In this document: positions 48,841 through 56,259 of the stretch, in pieces | Layout: each line of letters begins with the position of its first letter | Numbering within the stretch: the first letter of the stretch is position 1 | NCBI GenBank assembly: GCA_965215265.1 | Contig: OZ244048.1 | Location: 32,001-96,000 of the forward strand | Length of the DNA: 64,000 bases | DNA from: Candidatus Poribacteria bacterium | GTDB lineage: Bacteria > Poribacteria > WGA-4E > WGA-3G | Direction of reading: 5' to 3' | The notes under the pieces: generated by a model | Told to the model about the DNA's origin: nothing | What the model saw: the letters and a program-made list of their open reading frames with translations, nothing else | Databases searched by the model: none | Made by a program: the position numbers and the translations under genes

Positions 48841-50545
48841 ATGAAAAGAAGAATGCACCCCCCCCCTATGTATGTTAAGTGTTTTGGTTTGCGTGTTGAG
48901 TGTCGGATTTATCTCCTCGGTAATTTCGACATCTGCTCACGCTCAAAATAACGCAGCTATATTACAGAACGTTATACTGAATAATCCCTCGCATACTGGT
49001 ACATCTATGTATGCTACGTTTCGCAAAGCAGCCGAAGATGCAGGTTGGGCTGATTTTAGAGGACGAACGGGCTGGGGTTCACAGGATTTAGCAAGAGCTG
49101 GGAACCATCTAGTGACTGAGGGTCTCGTGGATGCGGAGACAGGTTATTCTACTGATAAGGCTCATGCGAGTCCTATAACGGCTGGCTTCTATAACGCCGG
49201 TGATACGATTCAAATTCAGCTCGTTTTCGATGTTGACGTGTTTGTCAATAAGGATCTTCGTCTCCAATTGCGCTTCGATGGTGCAAGTAGATGGGCCTCT
49301 CTTGACTTGGATTCCCTCACAGGGATAGCAGCTGGCACTTTCAGCGATTCCCATTATACAGCGCAACCTAATAATACGTATTACCAGACCACCAGTGGTG
49401 GTGATAAAACCTTAACCTTTGAGTATGAGGTCAGTTCAGCTGATAACGATAACGCTTTCAGTGGGATAGCTACTGCTATTGATAGGCGGGGTTTCTTTGC
49501 TATAGCCGAGGAAGACCTAACGCAGGGCGCAGGATGGTCGAGACAAGCAGGGCCGAATCAGATAAAATCAGAGCAGGAGGCTGCTATTGTTTCTGTCGCC
49601 CTGCTTAACGATAATCCTGTTCCATGGAACGCCAATAGGTGGAAAGATCATCCGACCACTCCATTCTGGAGTACGGAAGCCAGATACCTAGAAAATATTT
49701 ATCAAGTGTATGCTCTCGGTTATTCAGACGGGGCAAATACCTATTCACACGGGGTAGATACCTTCCGTGCAAGGACGTTCGTGTACAAATTTCCGTCGAC
49801 TGAAACCATTGAAACAGGTGACTTTGAGATAGAGATCAAGTTTTCTAATTGGGGAACTGGTTCCGGAGGGACAGATACCATTGCGGAAACCACGAGAGAC
49901 GATAGCTTCACAGCAGAAGATTTCGTGTTTACGGATTCTGAAGGTATGGAACTCAACGGTTGGACCGTTTCCGAGCCGATGTTTCATGCCCTCGATACGT
50001 TAGACCGAGGTGATCTGCCAGGTGCTTCCATCGCTGATAGGGTGAGAGACGCTGCAGGCTTCAAAGTCTACAGAGCGACTATCACGCCGCCGTTGAATTT
50101 TGACGGAGATGTGAAAATAACGGTGCCTGAGTATGCCACAATGGACATAGCGTTCAACCTGAGCCAGGCCTCGAATGTCCTGACGGTGTCTGTAAATACG
50201 GTTCGGGATGCGGCGCTCCTTGCGGGAATCAGGGAGGAACTCAACATCCCCGCGGGGACGGATGTCACCACGGCAGATCTGCTCCGCTTGACAAGCCTCG
50301 ATCTAAGTGGCTCAGACGTTAGCGATCTGACTTTCCTTCAATCCGCAACCAACTTGGAAGAGTTGGATCTCAGTGATACAGAAGTGTCGGAGATCTCAGC
50401 GCTGTCAACCCTCACCAGCTTGGTAGAGCTGTCTCTCTCGGGTACGCCAGTGTCGGATATCTCGCCGCTGTCAAACCTCACCAACTTGAAAAAGCTGGAT
50501 CTCAGTGATACGCCAGTGTCGAATATCTTGCCTCTGTCACAATAA
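48841..50545 (+). CDS. Secreted Ig-like + internalin-type LRR protein; frameshift at C9 in the signal peptide; C-terminus truncated
   Basis: SD AGGAG at 48827 and ATG 48841 'MKRRMH' are out of frame with ORF 48872; LRRs 'LTSLDLSGSDVSDL..LEELDLSDTEVSEISAL'. Confidence 0.8.
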
Positions 50546-50822: not shown

Positions 50823-51815
50823 ATGAGGCAAACTACCGCACCAGAGACATCCAAAGAAACACAAAGCAAACGCAAACTCTGGGACCCTTTCTTCAAAGAG
50901 TTCCTCGCGCTGCTATTCTCTGGGCTGGGTGCCTCTATAGAGACAGAGATAGAAGTCAACCGGTTGCCGCAGCGTATAGATGCACTCGCTCTCCTCGAAA
51001 GTGCCGCAGCCCGCGCGAGAGTGCATGCGAATCCGCTGCTCTCTTACTTACGCACGTATAATCTGTTCGAGTTCAAAGGGCAAAACGACCCGTTGAATGA
51101 ATCGGCGTATTACCGGATTTTTATGCGTGCGTGCGGCTATCTCGCAGCGCATAAGGTTCCAGACACGGAAGTTACTTTGACGATAGTGTCGTCTCGGAAG
51201 CCGCGGGCGCTGCTGACACATCCGCCTTTCGGGTTGCCGTGGGAGCCGCTAGCCCGGGGACATTATAGCCAGGCAGGTCTACCGGTGCATCTATTGGTTT
51301 GTAATGAAGTGGAATTGGTTGAGCCGAATTATTGGTTGCTGCTGTTTGCGTCGTCGCAGAAACAGTTTCGTGCGTTCCTGCGGCGGGTGATAACGGAAGA
51401 GAATACGTTATATTTTGACTCCGCGTTGTATTTGCAGCCGGAAGTCACGGAGGAGGTTTGTGAAATGGAAGGACATCAAGATTTCTTTCAGAGTCGTCTT
51501 CGCGAAGTTGCGACGACTTTGGGTCCGAAGCTGCTGTCGGCGCTGACTACGTCGGATAGATTGGCTCTGTTGAATGCGATGCCCGCGGCAGAACGTGCGG
51601 ATATGTTGGCGAGTCTACCCGCGGCAGAACGTGCGGATATGTTGGCGAGTCTACCCGCGGCAGAACGGGCGGATATGTTGGCACGCCTGAGTCCCGATGA
51701 GCGCGTCAAAGGACTCACTCCCGATGAGCGGTTAGCCGGACTTCATTTATCTCCGGCGGTGCGTGCAGAACTCGTGCGGCAGCTGGAGACAGCTGACAAT
51801 GACACCGACATGTAG
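50823..51815 (+). CDS. PD-(D/E)XK-like nuclease-fold protein with repetitive helical C-terminus
   Basis: 'WDPFFK', 'ETEIEV..PQRIDAL', 'NLFEFKG'; tail (PAAERADMLASL)3 and 'LSPDERVKGLTPDERLAGL'. Confidence 0.65.
   Translation: MRQTTAPETSKETQSKRKLWDPFFKEFLALLFSGLGASIETEIEVNRLPQRIDALALLESAAARARVHANPLLSYLRTYNLFEFKGQNDPLNESAYYRIFMRACGYLAAHKVPDTEVTLTIVSSRKPRALLTHPPFGLPWEPLARGHYSQAGLPVHLLVCNEVELVEPNYWLLLFASSQKQFRAFLRRVITEENTLYFDSALYLQPEVTEEVCEMEGHQDFFQSRLREVATTLGPKLLSALTTSDRLALLNAMPAAERADMLASLPAAERADMLASLPAAERADMLARLSPDERVKGLTPDERLAGLHLSPAVRAELVRQLETADNDTDM
51465..51815 (+). CDS. Putative intragenic small protein (116 aa)
   Basis: SD GGAGGAGGT at 51449-51457, 7 nt before in-frame ATG 51465. Confidence 0.55.
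   Translation: MEGHQDFFQSRLREVATTLGPKLLSALTTSDRLALLNAMPAAERADMLASLPAAERADMLASLPAAERADMLARLSPDERVKGLTPDERLAGLHLSPAVRAELVRQLETADNDTDM
51582..51682 (+). repeat. 36-bp tandem repeat, about 2.8 copies
   Basis: CCCGCGGCAGAACGTGCGGATATGTTGGCGAGTCTA. Confidence 0.95.
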
Positions 51816-51995: not shown

Positions 51996-53366
51996 TTAGA
52001 AAAACGTCAGGTACGGCTTATCCATTATCTCTCGCCAGAGTAGAACTGCCAGTTCCCGTGCGTGATAATCGCCCCACATTGATGCTTCGCCACACGGAAT
52101 TTTCCGATTTTCAGGCACATAATCCCATCCATTGGGGCGATGATACACCGAGTGCAGCAGTAAGCCTTGGTGTGCATCTGATTGAGAGAGGTACGGTTCA
52201 GAGAACAACGTTTTGGCTACTGTCAGCCCGGCCTGATAGTAGGTGCACCCGGCTTCAGATTCTCTATGCTTTTTGAGATAGTTGCCGAGACGGATTAATC
52301 CTTGTGCGGCGATCGCCGCGGCAGAACTGTCCACTGGTTCAAAGTCGTTAAATGGGTCTGCGGGTGCCGCTAAATAATCTCCTAGTTTGGATAAGCGAGG
52401 TGCCCCGGTATCCCAGTACGGAATTCCATTTTGTGCTGTGTTCTGTATATAAAAATTGGCTGTGGCTTCTGCTGCTTTACGCATATGTGCTGTTGCTTGG
52501 GGATATTCGCCGTAAGGTTGGAGTACCTTTTCTGACAAGGTATCAAAAAATTCAAGCTGCTCTGCGTAGCCGGTGATAATCCAGGCCAATCCACGCGTCC
52601 ACGTGGTAAACGGTGAATAGCCTTGTTGTGTGCTGGGGCATCGGTAGTTTCCATCGTTAGTGTTGAAGATAGATTCGTGTGCAACACGGCCGGGTAAGTC
52701 AAACGCATCGCGTCCGTCGCCGTAGTAGACATTATAGGCTGCTGTGGTTTCGGAATGGTGAAGGAGCCTGGTTAAGAGTGAAATAGGGGTGTCGCCTTCA
52801 CCCATCAGTACTGCCCCCAGCGTATGCCCTACTGCCAAGACACGCAGTGAGCGTATAGTATCTGAAAAGAGCGAATGCGGTCCGTTGAAGGAGTAGATAT
52901 ATCCCTTTCCATCTTTAATTGCTGTCCAGCGGTTTGCTTGGACGGCGGCAGAGGCTTTCAAGGCGAGTTGATAAAAATGCATCTCCGCCTCGTTCCACGG
53001 AATGAGTTTTTCTTGCATCAAGCGGCGGAGATTACCGTACGTGGAGACGTTGTTAAAACCGTGGTCATGTACTCCCACATGTGTGACATGCGGTGCCATC
53101 TTTTGAATTGTATTCTGCCTTCCAATCTCGAGAAACTGTTCGTCACCGGTCGCGTCAAATTGGAGGATGGCAGAGCCGAATTGAAACCCTTGCGTCCATT
53201 CAGTCCAGCCGCGTGTTGTATAGGTTCCTGCAACTGTAAAGACGGGTGTACCTTTGTCAGCGGGCCACGTTTCCTCAATCGCTAAAATCTTTTGACCCGA
53301 AAGTTCGAATAGCCGCTCGATATGAGGCTTGAGTTCATTCACAGTCAATGAATTATTTATTTGCAT
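51996..53366 (-). CDS. Glycoside hydrolase family 88-like (unsaturated glucuronyl hydrolase)
   Basis: 'WTEWTQGF', 'HDHGF', 'TWTRGLAW', 'PYWD', 'DSSAAAIAA', 'WGDY'. Confidence 0.82.
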   Translation of the reverse strand: MQINNSLTVNELKPHIERLFELSGQKILAIEETWPADKGTPVFTVAGTYTTRGWTEWTQGFQFGSAILQFDATGDEQFLEIGRQNTIQKMAPHVTHVGVHDHGFNNVSTYGNLRRLMQEKLIPWNEAEMHFYQLALKASAAVQANRWTAIKDGKGYIYSFNGPHSLFSDTIRSLRVLAVGHTLGAVLMGEGDTPISLLTRLLHHSETTAAYNVYYGDGRDAFDLPGRVAHESIFNTNDGNYRCPSTQQGYSPFTTWTRGLAWIITGYAEQLEFFDTLSEKVLQPYGEYPQATAHMRKAAEATANFYIQNTAQNGIPYWDTGAPRLSKLGDYLAAPADPFNDFEPVDSSAAAIAAQGLIRLGNYLKKHRESEAGCTYYQAGLTVAKTLFSEPYLSQSDAHQGLLLHSVYHRPNGWDYVPENRKIPCGEASMWGDYHARELAVLLWREIMDKPYLTFF

Positions 53367-53445
53367 TTTTTCTCTGTGGGTGCGATTTCCCAATCGCGAT
53401 AGAGTGGAGTTCTGGAAGCGATTGCTCAATCGCGATAGTATGCTC

Positions 53446-53940: not shown

Positions 53941-54316
53941 GATGGTATGATACCAACAATCTGTTCTATGGGAGCAATCTGTGCACTTATCGCTTCCATA
54001 GATAGAAAATGTATTCTGGTATTAGTTTAGCATGCTTTGAATTGTTTAGCAAGTTGAAGCGAAAATTGCTTCATAAGGATAGTGCTGCTCTAATCCTAAA
54101 TCTCCAGAATCACCTGATTGCACAAATCCTGTTTTTCTGCTATAATCAACTTGATTAATTGCTAGAAAACCTCAAGTGAGATTGAAAATCCAACACACAC
54201 CAAGCTAAACGGGTTGGCGCATGGAATTGCATCTACGGGAAAATGTTCCCTAAGTCGTTCGGACAAACCCCCTTCACAATCGCTTGCCCGAATTGGAGAA
54301 AATCAAGGAGAAATCA

Positions 54317-55495
54317 ATGAAGAAAAATAGGGCATCTTCGCATCGTGTGCTACCTATTTGCAACCTTGGTGCCCCGGGACACGGTAAAACAACGTTGACT
54401 GCGGCAATTGCGAAAGTGGTTGCACGAATTGGGGCGATTCAGACAGAAATAGATGGCAGCTTTGCGACGCAGCCCCCGGTGCACCAGCCGATTCGTGAAG
54501 GCGTTGGCATAACTTACCGCGCCATCGACTATGAAACGAGTGGTAAATTTTATAAGCAGATTGATTGTGAAAAGCCCCTGGATGTTGTAAAAATGTTAAT
54601 TAGTGGTTCTCCAAGGATCCAGGGTGCGATTTGGGTGGTAAACGCCGTTGATGGAGTCACCCCGGATTCCGCGGCGCATCTTCGCCTTGCAAGTGACATC
54701 CGTCTACCTACAGTGATCCCGTTTCTCAATACTGGTGGCATTCCTCAAGAGGATGAGCTGTTAAACATATGCGAATTGGAGATGTGCGAGCTGCTCAATG
54801 AGTCGGGATGGATAGAATATGCAGCGGGAGCTGAGCAGACAGCAGCCGTGATTATCGGTGATGCACAGAGCGCGTTAACCTATAAAGGTGAGAAGCTTAA
54901 TTCTGTCCAATGGAAACCGATTGTTGACCTGGTCTTTGCGCTGAATCGGTGGATGCCTGAACCTGTGAACGTTACGCAATTGCCCCTGATAATGCCGATT
55001 TATGGGATTATAGAAGAGACGCGCGATAGCGTAACGGTGCACGGTGAAATTGTTCAGGGGCATCTTGCTGTCGGACAAGCGGTTGATATTGTCGGAAAAG
55101 GCGATCGAATCAAGACACGGTGCCTCGGCATAACAGACAACGAAGTCCACGTTGAGGCTGAACCGGGTTGGCTGTCTGTCGGGCAGGTGCTTTGCACGCC
55201 TAAGACTGTCAAATCGCATGCTGCTTTCTCTGCGATTATCTATCTGCTGACCCAAGAAGAGAGCGGCACCCATATTCCATTAATCGATAAGGACAGGCCG
55301 GATATTCATTTGTGGGGTGTTGATATGCCAACCCATCTACAGCTGCCAGCGGACCTCTCAATTATGACACCGGGAACTTATGCAAGCGTCACCATGAGAC
55401 TTGATTTACCTTTAGTGATCGAAGTCGGGACGCGGTTTGAGGTAAAAAAGATGGGGGCTAGAGTCGGTATCGGTATTGTGACGGGGTTGGATTGA
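54317..55495 (+). CDS. Highly divergent EF-Tu paralogue
   Basis: 'GHGKTTLTAAI', 'GAIWVVNAVDG', 'AIIYLLTQEESGTH', 'GTRFEVKKMGARVGIGIV'; DCPGH replaced by DCEKP and NKxD by NTGG; SD AAGGAG. Confidence 0.8.
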   Translation: MKKNRASSHRVLPICNLGAPGHGKTTLTAAIAKVVARIGAIQTEIDGSFATQPPVHQPIREGVGITYRAIDYETSGKFYKQIDCEKPLDVVKMLISGSPRIQGAIWVVNAVDGVTPDSAAHLRLASDIRLPTVIPFLNTGGIPQEDELLNICELEMCELLNESGWIEYAAGAEQTAAVIIGDAQSALTYKGEKLNSVQWKPIVDLVFALNRWMPEPVNVTQLPLIMPIYGIIEETRDSVTVHGEIVQGHLAVGQAVDIVGKGDRIKTRCLGITDNEVHVEAEPGWLSVGQVLCTPKTVKSHAAFSAIIYLLTQEESGTHIPLIDKDRPDIHLWGVDMPTHLQLPADLSIMTPGTYASVTMRLDLPLVIEVGTRFEVKKMGARVGIGIVTGLD

Positions 55496-55551: not shown

Positions 55552-56259
55552 CTATTTGGCGGTAGCTATAGCATCCTCAAGGAAGAGCGCACCTGTGTAT
55601 AGCGCGCGTCCTATAATTGCTCCACTGGTCCTGATACTCTTGAGTGCGGCTATGTCCTCGATAGTCGTGATACCCCCGGAAGCAATGACATCGGCTGGGA
55701 TAGTGTTAACGATGTCCGCTGTTGCCTCTACATTCGGCCCCTTCAGCATCCCGTCACTCTTAATGTCTGTATAGATAACCGTCTGAACATCTTCCATCTG
55801 TTTTGCGAATTCGACAGCGGATTTTTGAGAGACTTCCAACCAACCGTGTGTTGCAACCATGCCGTCTTTCGCATCAATGCCGACGGCGATGCTTTGGCCG
55901 TAAAGGTCGCAAGCCTGTTTTACCAATTCTGGTTGCTTGAGTGCCGCTGTCCCTAAAATTGTTCGGTGAACGCCGAGTCCTAAAACGGCTTCTACCTGTT
56001 CTAAAGTTCGAATGCCGCCCCCAAGTTGTACGGGTATGTCTAGTACAGAGACAATCTCTCTGACAATATCAAGATTAGCCGATACGCCTCGAAACGCGCC
56101 GTCGAGGTCAACAAGATGGAGATATTCTGCGCCTTCCGACTGCCACTTTTCTGCCATTTCCACAGGTGCGTCTGAGAAGATTGTCTCGTGTTCTGCTATG
56201 CCTTGCACCAAGTTAACACACTTTCCGTCTCGTAGATCGATGGCTGGTAAAATTAACAT
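55552..56259 (-). CDS. hisA: ProFAR isomerase HisA
   Basis: 'LPAIDLRDGKCVNLVQG', 'HLVDLDGA', 'QLGGGIR', 'YTDIKSDG', 'IASGG'. Confidence 0.96.
   Translation of the reverse strand: MLILPAIDLRDGKCVNLVQGIAEHETIFSDAPVEMAEKWQSEGAEYLHLVDLDGAFRGVSANLDIVREIVSVLDIPVQLGGGIRTLEQVEAVLGLGVHRTILGTAALKQPELVKQACDLYGQSIAVGIDAKDGMVATHGWLEVSQKSAVEFAKQMEDVQTVIYTDIKSDGMLKGPNVEATADIVNTIPADVIASGGITTIEDIAALKSIRTSGAIIGRALYTGALFLEDAIATAK

Follow-up and report, generated by a model that had tools for sequence, protein, structure and literature searches.

What does a bacterium do with a second, full-length elongation factor Tu (EF-Tu) whose GTPase motifs are altered? The question is raised by a gene on the forward strand of the window, by which we mean the whole 64,000-nucleotide stretch of Poribacteria DNA that was analysed. 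The original prediction, made from the letters alone, described an intact EF-Tu paralogue with a degenerate GTPase centre and a good Shine-Dalgarno sequence. It proposed a pseudo-GTPase repurposed as a regulator, a binder of EF-Ts or the ribosome, a chaperone, or a decoy for toxins or antibiotics that target EF-Tu.

Reading of the locus revealed an open frame whose product is a three-domain EF-Tu homologue (Table 1). The ATG start fits the N-termini of relatives, which an upstream TTG at position 54284 does not. The ribosome-binding sequence AAGGAGAAA lies 6 nt before this ATG, so that the intact frame and good Shine-Dalgarno sequence originally reported are both real, and AGGAGAAA is kept upstream of the paralogue in 10 of 11 regions from the same family, f1. 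The putative promoter has 10 of 12 consensus matches, with the TG of an extended -10 element present. A near-consensus motif, TTGC..-N17-TG(C/T)TA(T/C)AAT, occurs 73-199 nt before the paralogue start in 10 of the 11 f1 genomes examined. The predicted 5′ leader of approximately 165 nt is longer than in eight of the nine other f1 genomes that bear the motif (L032 is similarly long) and is single-copy within the genome. In an Rfam search of the leader RNA (E ≤ 1), the sole match was to CncR1, on the opposite strand and sub-threshold (21.9 bits vs 76). The gene stands away from ribosomal genes, as had been claimed: its two neighbours, hisA and a gene resembling a cytidylyltransferase gene, are each encoded on the opposite strand. 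In a search of sequencing runs, 23 were listed, of which 19 contain the stretch or part of it; no RNA run is among these, and they are silent on expression.

Table 1. Features of the EF-Tu-like paralogue and its upstream region, in window coordinates.
Feature	Position	Strand	Basis
EF-Tu-like paralogue, coding sequence (392 aa + stop)	54317..55495	+	ORF reading, profiles, AlphaFold2, dN/dS
Putative promoter: TTGCAC, 17-nt spacer, extended -10 TGCTATAAT	54119..54146	+	consensus scan
Shine-Dalgarno sequence AAGGAGAAA, 6 nt upstream of the ATG	54305..54313	+	sequence reading
Domain I, G-domain fold (residues 1-205)	54317..54931	+	Pfam GTP_EFTU, alignment to own tuf
Walker A / G1 GAPGHGKT, retained (GHVDHGKT in tuf)	54368..54391	+	alignments
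G3 remnant DCEKP for DCPGH; glycine and catalytic His gone	54563..54577	+	alignments
G4 remnant NTGG for NKxD (NKAD in tuf)	54728..54739	+	alignments
G5 remnant GDAQ for GSAL	54857..54868	+	alignments
Domain II, a shortened beta-barrel; its hairpin GKGDRIKTRC ... EPGW is conserved and specific to the family	54932..55204	+	alignments
Junction of 14-residue deletion, Ile272/Thr273; hairpin with FRK...GDNxG removed	55130..55135	+	alignments
Domain III (residues 297-392) and stop codon, without C-terminal extension	55205..55495	+	Pfam GTP_EFTU_D3

The protein belongs to the translational-GTPase superfamily. Specifically, it scored above the gathering thresholds of Pfam GTP_EFTU (52.0 bits vs 26.5, residues 12-159) and GTP_EFTU_D3 (43.8 bits vs 27, residues 297-390), and its predicted fold matches EF-Tu structures. 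GTP_EFTU_D2 gave no match in the paralogue at E ≤ 1. The sequence is approximately 30% identical to solved EF-Tus and to the product of the genome's own tuf. NCBIfam models of EF-Tu gave it approximately 200 bits, far under their cut-offs; for the equivalog TIGR00485, the score was 196.1 against 522.4. Among the features of that model, the paralogue has G1 and lacks G3 (DxxGH), G4 (NKxD), G5 (SAL), and the domain-II hairpin. With the SelB model TIGR00475 it reached 20.9 bits, where the cut-off is 242.25, and its sequence stops after domain III and therefore carries no C-terminal winged-helix extension of the SelB type. Thus, the three recognisable EF-Tu domains, the shortened domain II, and the missing SelB extension of the original prediction were all borne out, the first by the two Pfam domains, the alignment to tuf, and the fold match.

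In the Protein Atlas, the nearest clusters were only atypical members of the EF-Tu family, from giant viruses and Myxococcota. A search for fused forms among longer proteins (687-2000 aa), for which an empty result is weak evidence, gave a single sequence at E ≤ 1e-60, P0310 (1400 aa), which is only 31% identical and is not a family member. The paralogues are acidic (median pI 5.42 vs 4.76 for tuf) and thus show no sign of a general nucleic-acid-binding surface. Elsewhere in the genome, we found the canonical tuf whose presence was to be checked: one copy, adjoining fusA and scoring 724.9 bits with TIGR00485. The genome further contains a genuine SelB (650 aa, 337.1 bits with a cut-off of 242.25) and a single EF-Ts, so the roles of these factors in translation are already covered.

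The states of the GTPase motifs were read by alignment to the genome's own tuf. The letters of G1 are as originally reported, but the loop is not degenerate as it still fits the Walker A pattern GxxxxGK[ST]. Indeed, GxxxxGKT was found in 121 of 121 close relatives and, among 22 distinct genomic paralogue sequences compared across lineages, the P-loop is absent only in G058, a lineage that retains the family's other conserved blocks. The reported alteration of switch I corresponds to REGVGITY for the RGITI of tuf, and no conserved Thr is kept in the family. In G3, the Walker-B Asp is invariant in the family. The DxxG glycine is replaced by S, T, K, E, or N in 23 of 25 sequences of the paralogue clade, the exceptions being G058 (DAHGY) and the metagenomic P0122 (DGLGH). 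The reported loss of the catalytic His is correct for this genome but not for at least 76 of the 121 close relatives, which retain it, as do families f2-f4. The reported change of G4 to NTGG was likewise seen in the alignment; the 121 close relatives have NT.., with no Lys at position 2, and across lineages G4 forms a gradient from NKAD/NEVD in f4 through NKxE in f3 and NQxD/E in f2 to NT.. in f1. Overall, the losses in G3, G4, and G5 agree with a degenerate GTPase centre. The description should nevertheless be qualified: all close relatives conserve the P-loop, which lies in the most constrained part of the protein.

The shortening of domain II amounts to 14 residues missing relative to the genome's own tuf (the stretch FRKFLDEGRAGDN). 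The hairpin so removed, FRK...GDNxG, is presumably the A76/aminoacyl pocket of EF-Tu, judging by ternary-complex structures. Variable low-complexity inserts occupy the deletion site in the sister type described below (P0123/G007) and in the majority of f3 relatives.

We evaluated the distribution of the paralogue from a match table read at best E ≤ 1e-64, well above the level of canonical EF-Tu. The gene was found in 152 of the 159 genomes of one Poribacteria order, this genome included; by family, the counts were 110 of 111 others in f1, 11 of 11 in f2, 27 of 29 in f3, and 3 of 7 in f4. Among 17 genomes outside the order, G007 alone gave multiple matches; it belongs to a different order within the class, and its extra copy is a less degenerate sister type. 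Of these 17, the sister query covered G007. With either query, no paralogue was detectable in genus g17 (three genomes, 91% complete). The gene is thus dispensable in at least one lineage. The reading frame was intact in all 20 loci fetched over four families, and all 39 tblastn matches span at least 90% of the protein. In a quick LG+G4 tree, the paralogues form one clade (SH-aLRT 100) that branches like the tuf tree, and a long stem separates it from every other EF-Tu row. This position fits descent of the clade either from a Poribacteria tuf or from outside.

Across the order, paralogues are 43-79% identical and tuf products 81-94%, and the paralogue evolves three to four times faster than tuf. 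Its median dN/dS was 0.090 (91 usable of 561 pairs, 34 genomes), compared with 0.072 for hisA and 0.077 for the cytidylyltransferase gene. In a run that still included six duplicated genomes, the values for domains I, II, and III were 0.091, 0.101, and 0.086, respectively, and residues 14-100, at 0.064, are the most constrained stretch. A dN/dS near 1 or absence from relatives had been named as signs of a decaying copy. The ratio is instead like that of housekeeping neighbours, and the gene is present nearly throughout the order. The arrangement of cytidylyltransferase gene, paralogue, and hisA, with both neighbours on the other strand, is restricted to f1. Outside f1, the neighbours are M20 peptidase and isochorismatase genes, NamZ and DUF3500, PhyH, hisD, accA, trpE, or an enolase-superfamily gene. 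No conserved operon partner was found across families and, accordingly, genomic context gives no functional hint.

The AlphaFold2 model of the paralogue (pLDDT 91.3, pTM 0.88) has switch I as a beta-hairpin and matches mainly open, GDP-form EF-Tu, with TM scores of 0.80-0.87 (1tui, 6mij, 1efc, 1d8t, and others). The genome's own tuf product, modelled likewise, gave a pTM of 0.64 and matched closed structures with a GTP analogue or locked by an antibiotic (1exm, 2c77, 1ttt, 1eft, 1ha3; TM 0.76-0.81), and open EF-Tu structures with TM scores of only 0.53-0.65. The conformation is a prediction, and the alignment behind the paralogue model (A1) included 17 canonical or other EF-Tu-like rows. Among segments of the G domain, helix D is one of those most often equal to the canonical consensus (0.60 of positions). 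One Glu of helix D that never varies among the canonical sequences stands as the consensus in just 36% of diverse paralogues, and the positions of His84 and His118, which we take to be the insertion site of EF-Ts Phe81, vary within the family.

A complex prediction of EF-Ts with the paralogue gave an ipSAE of 0.37 vs 0.00 for the best control, with a verdict of 'weak support'. The runs share at least 38% of contacts, and the partner pLDDT was at least 83. In the calibration of this test, 58 of 80 solved complexes attained the mark, as did 2 of 110 mismatched pairs; scores of 0.60 or less comprised only 7 of the 80 solved complexes plus both passing mismatches. The pass may reflect memory of solved EF-Tu:EF-Ts complexes. 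The proposal that the protein binds EF-Ts has a weak pass in its favour, and against it the possible origin of that pass.

A GTPase fold, loss of switch and hydrolysis motifs, and purifying selection (dN/dS ~0.09) together mark the paralogue as a putative pseudo-GTPase. The reading that we favour, and hold to be somewhat more probable than all others together, is that it is a functional, vertically inherited pseudo-GTPase derived from EF-Tu that has an off-state shape and serves as a binding module without GTPase activity or tRNA delivery. According to this reading, tuf would have been duplicated or acquired long ago in the ancestor of one Poribacteria order. In the first steps, common to nearly all members, the switch-II glycine (DxxG) would have disappeared and the domain-II aminoacyl/A76 hairpin would have been replaced. 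Constraint would then have relaxed on the catalytic His and on guanine recognition (NKxD to NKxE to NQxD to NT..), and one lineage, that of G058, would have lost the P-loop itself. Given the losses in the switches, the pocket, and the motifs, the protein should be able neither to deliver aminoacyl-tRNA nor to cycle between GTP and GDP shapes. It would instead be held in an open arrangement like that of EF-Tu-GDP, in which the family-specific residues W199, W285, and W333 might fasten the domains to one another. In f1, the intact P-loop probably still binds nucleotide or phosphate, as a structural ligand.

With the parts for the GTP switch and for charged tRNA lost, the paralogue probably has a new job in binding, and would work by binding rather than by catalysis. 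In order of likelihood, we rank as its partner something new, then one of the EF-Ts/bL12 type, and then others. We give a little less than an even chance to a new partner that reads the family-specific surface (the GKGDRIKTRC/EPGW hairpin, WKPIVDL, THIPL..ND.P.I.LW, and FE.KKMG). That the partner is one that recognises helix D or the GDP form of EF-Tu (EF-Ts, bL12), with the paralogue damping or tuning translation, is possible but doubtful. Of the original inference, a selected EF-Tu paralogue, apparently without a working GTPase switch, beside a canonical tuf has held up; the particular roles listed for it are conjectural or weakly backed.

The conservation of the P-loop and the low dN/dS of residues 14-100 could equally allow a working switch with altered base specificity. 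In this rather unlikely alternative, the protein is driven by ATP or any NTP, has a non-canonical switch II, and acts on a new effector. The invariant Walker-B Asp, the Walker A motif in all 121 close relatives, and residues 14-100 as the most constrained stretch (dN/dS 0.064) are all consistent with it, as is the passage of G4 via NKxE and NQxD forms, NxxE being the G4 that accompanies ATP use in YchF/Ola1. However, 23 of 25 sequences carry another residue in place of the gamma-phosphate-sensing glycine, and the two that keep it are G058, which has no P-loop, and the metagenomic P0122. Switch I has no conserved Thr, the G058 lineage has lost GKT and retains the other conserved blocks, and a single open shape was modelled with confidence (pTM 0.88 vs 0.64 for tuf). 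We consider it less likely still that the paralogue is a sink for EF-Ts and a brake on translation, that is, a mimic of EF-Tu-GDP or of nucleotide-free EF-Tu that occupies EF-Ts or the bL12 stalk and so, when expressed, lowers the recycling or recruitment of the real EF-Tu. The predicted GDP-like shape, the relatively well-kept helix D, and the weak pass of the complex prediction all point this way, as does EF-Ts being single-copy in 41 of the 41 genomes searched. By the calibration, most weak passes are wrong unless the proposed pair was probable to begin with, and this one may come from remembered complexes. Moreover, the canonical helix-D Glu and the His84 and His118 positions are not conserved in the family, and a putative promoter that looks strong and constitutive suits a brake poorly.

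That the paralogue confers immunity to toxins or antibiotics which exploit or target EF-Tu, or acts as a decoy for them, is improbable. Several inter-bacterial toxins bind EF-Tu-GDP in solved structures, such as those with Tse6 (4zv4) and CdiA (7vmc), which are among the structural matches of the paralogue, and Poribacteria inhabit dense microbial communities. Nevertheless, the purifying selection is strong and even, giving no hint of an arms race, which fits poorly with the toxin decoy first suggested; no toxin, immunity, or defence genes adjoin the paralogue; and the PADLOC models of anti-phage defence gave matches to 0 families at E ≤ 0.01. The domain-II pocket that is deleted is presumably the site used by GE2270A-type antibiotics, so the suggested sink for antibiotics of this pocket is unlikely. 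The complete three-domain architecture, with domain III well kept, might be thought to suit an elongation factor specialised for an unusual tRNA or amino acid, by analogy with SelB, nematode mitochondrial EF-Tu1/2, or the archaeal SelB-like proteins. This is more improbable again: the aminoacyl-pocket hairpin of domain II is deleted or swapped for variable low-complexity loops, residues in MPIEDIF and GRGTV, assumed to belong to the same pocket, are changed, and G3 and G4 are degenerate. In addition, REGG and PQF, taken here to be T-stem contacts, have become KKMG and PDI, and a genuine SelB exists elsewhere in the genome. Finally, a decaying duplicate, a pseudogene in the making, or an artefact of annotation or assembly might be suspected from the loss of several catalytic motifs and a rate three to four times that of tuf. 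This explanation was refuted by a dN/dS of ~0.09 across all three domains, intact frames (20/20 loci; at least 90% coverage in 39/39 tblastn matches), retention across the order, a gene tree that tracks the species tree, and a conserved putative promoter and Shine-Dalgarno sequence.

Compared with canonical EF-Tu (TIGR00485), the paralogue has the same three-domain fold and length and retains, besides the P-loop and the Walker-B Asp, the domain III core and much of helix D. Absent from it are NKxD, SAL, 14 residues of domain II, the DxxG glycine and, in this genome, the catalytic His. It also lies outside the str/fusA-tuf context, evolves faster, and is modelled open rather than closed. The available part of a 2015 census of translational GTPases notes the actEF-Tu/Streptomyces Tuf3-type proteins as the sole clearly distinct EF-Tu-like subfamily of bacteria and describes them as condition-specific, antibiotic-resistant translation factors (PMC4342817). 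As portrayed there, these resemble the paralogue in being a lineage-restricted, clearly distinct second EF-Tu-like gene, but they are still working EF-Tus, whereas the paralogue has lost elements of the switch and the tRNA pocket. In the accessible text on the hibernation factor Balon, EF-Tu(GDP) is held on hibernating ribosomes by Balon, bL12's C-terminal domain, and 16S helix h5, so that EF-Tu, when open and GDP-bound, plays a distinct part on the ribosome (PMC10901736). The paralogue is modelled in the same open form as the EF-Tu of that account. Unlike in that system, no Balon/aeRF1-like gene was found: searches of this 95%-complete genome with PF18854 (baeRF_family10) and PF03465 (eRF1_3) gave nothing, and PF18854 matched the Bacillus subtilis and Thermus thermophilus genomes as a control. 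A partnership with Balon was dropped on this basis.

Similar uncharacterised proteins occur in Myxococcus (the cluster of P0143) and Pseudoalteromonas rubra (the cluster of P0147), with annotations that go no further than 'GTP-binding protein' or 'elongation factor Tu'. They are of ~395 aa, with an altered G3 (DPPSH and DCPNY) and a partly altered G1 or G4. In contrast to the paralogue, they keep the domain-II hairpin (GDKVD and GDSAA at the GDNxG site), and the tree places them apart from the Poribacteria clade. They probably degenerated independently and suggest that the phenomenon is wider than Poribacteria. Among eukaryotes, pseudo-GTPases that keep the GTPase fold as a binding scaffold after losing catalytic or switch residues, some binding nucleotide and some not, include Ski7 of the EF1A/eRF3 branch and, with a non-canonical G3, the small RGK proteins, Rnd, and CENP-M. 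They belong to other lineages and have other partners, and their sequence kinship with the paralogue is only at the level of the superfamily.

We found no description of the paralogue family in the literature on Poribacteria, EF-Tu paralogues, and pseudo-GTPases, including the available portion of a sponge-proteome preprint (10.64898/2026.10.20.760564), nor an example in print of a bacterial pseudo-GTPase derived from EF-Tu. We tentatively suggest, as a minority view of the data, that this is the first such bacterial family, frozen in the EF-Tu-GDP shape and kept by a whole order as a regulator or adaptor dedicated to the translation apparatus. If so, the paralogue might occupy EF-Ts, the bL12 stalk, or idle ribosomes, and bacteria, like eukaryotes, would reuse translational GTPases as non-catalytic scaffolds. 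EF-Tu is among the most conserved and most abundant of bacterial proteins, and a stepwise decay, of the glycine, then of base recognition and the His, and once of the P-loop, would record a core enzyme becoming a pseudoenzyme. Because the hosts are an uncultured lineage, the practical value is to be sought in recombinant work and the mining of meta-omic data. As a defined protein that can be expressed, the paralogue could also be used to look for other factors that recognise EF-Tu in its off-state shape. The family also forms a natural series of intermediates usable for studying the evolution of pseudoenzymes, from NKAD with the His, through NTGG without it, to one lineage without a P-loop.

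The EF-Tu-like paralogue starts at an ATG with which the N-termini of its relatives line up; a TTG at 54284 is a possible alternative start. Against Pfam, the protein passed the cut-offs for the EF-Tu G domain (52.0 against 26.5 bits) and for EF-Tu domain 3 (43.8 against 27 bits); domain 2 was not recognized. NCBIfam EF-Tu models scored approximately 200 bits, below their cut-offs of 449-522, and the SelB model scored 20.9 bits against a cut-off of 242. The closest solved structures were EF-Tus, aligned end to end (best, 6gfu, E = 3e-54). The flanking genes, encoding a cytidylyltransferase-like protein and HisA, each lie on the opposite strand.

The genome, a single contig of 4.83 Mb that is 95% complete, bears out the description of this gene as a second EF-Tu: one canonical tuf (724.9 bits, 399 aa) occurs elsewhere, immediately downstream of EF-G. 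In an alignment to this tuf, every motif change listed in the original prediction was recovered: GHVDHGKT to GAPGHGKT (G1), RGITI to REGVGITY (switch), DCPGH to DCEKP (G3), NKAD to NTGG (G4), and a domain II lacking 14 residues. G5 was changed as well, from GSAL to GDAQ. The proposed degeneracy of the GTPase centre thus held for G3 and G4, but G1 still matches the Walker A pattern. EF-Ts was present in one copy, as in all 41 genomes searched, and tuf was single-copy in 59 of 61 sampled genomes (E <= 1e-100). A genuine SelB (337 bits) and LepA are encoded approximately 4 kb apart; given this SelB, the organism appears to use selenocysteine.

Coordinates of the paralogue and associated features (window positions unless a fetched locus, L, is named)
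Feature	Position	Strand	Description
Paralogue ORF	54317-55495	+	open frame, 392 residues
Shine-Dalgarno	6 nt ahead of paralogue ATG	+	AAGGAGAAA, read from sequence
Promoter-like site	54119-54146	+	TTGCAC-N17-TGCTATAAT, sequence scan
Predicted 5' leader	54147-54316		
hisA	55552-56259	-	beside paralogue
557-aa protein	48872-50545	+	signal-peptide-like N-terminus, C-terminal leucine-rich repeats (LRR_4)
330-aa ORF	50823-51815	+	three tandem LASLPAAERADM copies near C-terminus; weak MgtE_N match
477-aa ORF	51996-53429	-	80-85% identical in seven related genomes
hisD	L043:6613-7917		beside paralogue
trpE	L066:2845-4185		beside paralogue
M20 peptidase	L044:6702-7949		beside paralogue
G058 paralogue	L070:1489-2646	+	20 nt after enolase-superfamily (MR_MLE_C) gene
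L048 paralogue	L048:7992-9317	+	longest domain-II insert
SelB	L003:1489-3438		own genome, contig C1, ~2.075-2.081 Mb (with LepA)
LepA	L004:1474-3276		

Searching approximately 5.8 billion proteins with the paralogue yielded 359 matches. Identity was 67-99% for each of the best 120, and most of these had a length of 386 aa. Among 1.84 billion cluster representatives, only P0122 (51% identity, 421 bits) and P0123 (37%, 244 bits) exceeded the ordinary EF-Tu-like level; the next scored 174 bits. We then scanned 176 genomes of the phylum, calling presence at a best E <= 1e-64 by our reading of the match table. The paralogue was found in the window genome and in 151 of 158 other genomes of the same order. 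At this threshold it was missing from seven (G115, G030, G037, G063 and three of genus g17); in g17, a second query, P0123, recovered canonical tuf alone. Outside the order, the paralogue query gave a second match in only 1 of 17 genomes, G007, which belongs to another order of the same class. Its second copy is of the P0123 type (86% identity with the P0123 query) and is referred to here as the sister form.

The paralogue is genuine, not a pseudogene. The ORF was intact in all 20 fetched loci, which span families f1-f4. Pairwise Nei-Gojobori estimates from 34 distinct genomes (91 of 561 pairs usable, 0.05 < dS < 1.5) gave a median dN/dS of 0.090 (range, 0.058-0.161); the medians for hisA and the cytidylyltransferase neighbour were 0.072 and 0.077, respectively. 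Together with the wide retention, this purifying selection disposes of the decaying copy that the original prediction had named as its alternative. Constraint was roughly equal across the three domains (0.091, 0.101 and 0.086, with six genomes counted twice). Over the order, identity to the window's copy was 43-79% for the paralogue and 81-94% for tuf (same span). A rapid maximum-likelihood analysis of 78 rows placed the paralogues and P0123 in a single clade with a long stem (SH-aLRT, 100). Its branching order, f4, then f2/f3, then f1, mirrors that of tuf, which points to vertical inheritance from an ancestor of the order.

Paralogue occurrence and GTPase motifs by lineage (occurrence excludes the window genome; f1 motifs are from 121 close relatives)
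Lineage	Genomes with paralogue	G1	G3	G4	G5
Sister form (G007/P0123)		GH.GHGKT	DCVNH	NKID	GSA
f4, all	3/7				
f4, genus g18		Walker A kept	D(S/G)ESH	NKAD or NEVD	
f4, genus g16 (G058)		GKT gone (..GEKSNDLCTA.. for G....GKT)	DAHGY	DQPD	
f3	27/29	Walker A kept	D.xSH	NK(S/A)E	
f2	11/11	Walker A kept	D(C/G)xSH	NQ(T/S)(D/E)	
f1	110/111	Walker A 121/121	DCE(T/K/M/..)x	NT..	GD(A/V)x

The GTPase motifs differed between lineages in a graded manner. In the sister form, the switch-II glycine alone was lost from these motifs. The catalytic histidine, which the original prediction gave as lost, is indeed absent from the window genome and a few near relatives, but not from the family overall: at least 76 of the 121 f1 relatives have it. 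Lysine never occurred at the second position of G4 in these 121. The G058 paralogue, despite its destroyed Walker A, retains the family blocks DYETSGK, WQPIVDL, DAEPGWISPG and FEVKKME. Families f1, f2 and f4 have lost the domain-II hairpin; most f3 proteins and the sister form carry low-complexity inserts of variable length at this site. Four f3 inserts (L042, L043, L045 and L048) contain many S, P, G and A residues and differ greatly in length. In the EF-Tu ternary complex, the hairpin forms the aminoacyl/A76 pocket with the MPIEDxF and GRGT residues, which are likewise altered in the paralogue. Because the motif states are graded, an order of events can be inferred: it looks as though the gamma-phosphate-sensing glycine and the tRNA-end pocket were lost first, and constraint on base recognition and the catalytic histidine would have eased next.

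An AlphaFold2 model of the paralogue (61-row alignment) had a pLDDT of 91.3 and a pTM of 0.88, with switch I a confident beta-hairpin. Foldseek matched it over its full length to EF-Tu structures, nearly all of the open GDP type (TM 0.80-0.87, rmsd 2.8-4.3 Å; 1tui, 6mij, 1efc and 1d8t, for example); two EF-Tu:EF-Ts-type complexes scored lower (TM 0.73-0.74), and no closed GTP-analogue structure was among the matches listed. As a control, the genome's own tuf was folded identically (44-row alignment; pLDDT 86.1, pTM 0.64), and both switches were of low confidence. This model matched closed GTP-type structures (1exm, 2c77, 2c78, 1ttt, 1eft and 1ha3) at TM 0.76-0.81 and open structures at only 0.53-0.65. 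Under this shared procedure, the paralogue is predicted to adopt a single rigid, open, off-state shape.

With moderate confidence, we interpret the paralogue as a lineage-restricted, vertically inherited and strongly constrained pseudo-GTPase derived from EF-Tu, probably fixed in an off-state shape and putatively unable to carry aminoacyl-tRNA. In the window genome's family, it likely still binds nucleotide or phosphate. The main rival, a still-working nucleotide switch of changed base specificity, is in our judgment improbable. Residues 14-100, from the P-loop to switch II, were the most constrained (dN/dS 0.064, six genomes counted twice), which speaks for this rival; the single open shape of the model speaks against it.

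If the paralogue is a pseudo-GTPase, a partner shared with EF-Tu-GDP, such as EF-Ts or bL12, seems rather doubtful, and a new partner has a chance somewhat short of even. Complex prediction for EF-Ts and the paralogue, with both chains entered as alignments and three controls, scored 0.37 versus 0.00 for the best control, graded as 'weak support'; runs shared at least 38% of contacts, and the partner had a pLDDT of 83 or more. Of 80 solved complexes, 58 passed the mark, as did 2 of 110 mismatched pairs, and scores <=0.60 comprised only 7 of those 80 complexes plus both passing mismatches. Such a pass may arise because the predictor has memorized solved EF-Tu:EF-Ts complexes. Helix D, the docking site of EF-Ts and bL12, is among the better-conserved segments (consensus equal to canonical at 0.60 of positions); its one glutamate that never varies among canonical sequences is the consensus residue in only 36% of diverse paralogues. 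Several invariant or near-invariant stretches have no canonical counterpart (YKG, WKPIVDL, GKGDRIKTRC, EPGW, THIPL, ND.P.I.LW and FE.KKMG) and include three new tryptophans. These residues suggest either a novel surface for binding or novel packing between domains.

Synteny of the fetched loci revealed no conserved neighbour beyond f1, PADLOC returned no defence-system match for the paralogue, and no Balon/aeRF1-like gene (PF18854, PF03465) was found in the window's genome. No fused forms were found among longer proteins (687-2000 aa). The metagenomic protein P0310 (1400 aa), which combines EF-Tu-type domains with MMR_HSR1 and RsgA-type GTPase Pfam matches, was rejected as one: it is 31% identical to the query and is an unusual multi-GTPase fusion outside the family.

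Judging from their motifs, degenerate proteins of the EF-Tu type also occur outside Poribacteria. Of the 150 best cluster representatives, 130 were alignable at all three motifs, and in 81 of these one or more of G1, G3 and G4 departed from the canonical form (altered G3: DCPSH, DCPNY and DPPSH, for example). Among the 81 are proteins from Myxococcus spp. and Pseudoalteromonas rubra (P0143, P0147) that are named 'GTP-binding protein'; unlike the paralogue, they retain the domain-II hairpin, and they fall outside the Poribacteria clade. A 2015 census of translational GTPases recognized actEF-Tu as the only clearly distinct bacterial EF-Tu-like subfamily (PMC4342817). Our literature search turned up no published account of the paralogue family, nor of an EF-Tu pseudo-GTPase in any bacterium. 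Paralogues of EF-Tu that have degenerated may form a broader phenomenon that has gone unstudied.

In 10 of 11 f1 genomes from five genera, the extended -10 promoter motif of the window's promoter-like site precedes the start by 73-199 nt, and AGGAGAAA was equally well conserved (10/11); the promoter motif was not retained in such form beyond f1. The leader had no Rfam match over threshold. It is approximately 165 nt long here versus 40-60 nt in most relatives, and the additional stretch is single-copy in the genome.

An amino-acid biosynthesis gene or an M20 peptidase gene lies beside the paralogue in several otherwise unrelated contexts. These neighbours are mostly convergent with it, not co-transcribed, and the adjacency, noticed post hoc, may be chance. 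The 330-aa ORF had no homologue in 20 related loci, which extend only 8 kb from the paralogue in either direction. The 477-aa ORF encodes a conserved protein matching no Pfam family at E <= 1e-5. Finally, the 557-aa protein is a eukaryotic-like repeat protein of a type reported from sponge symbionts.
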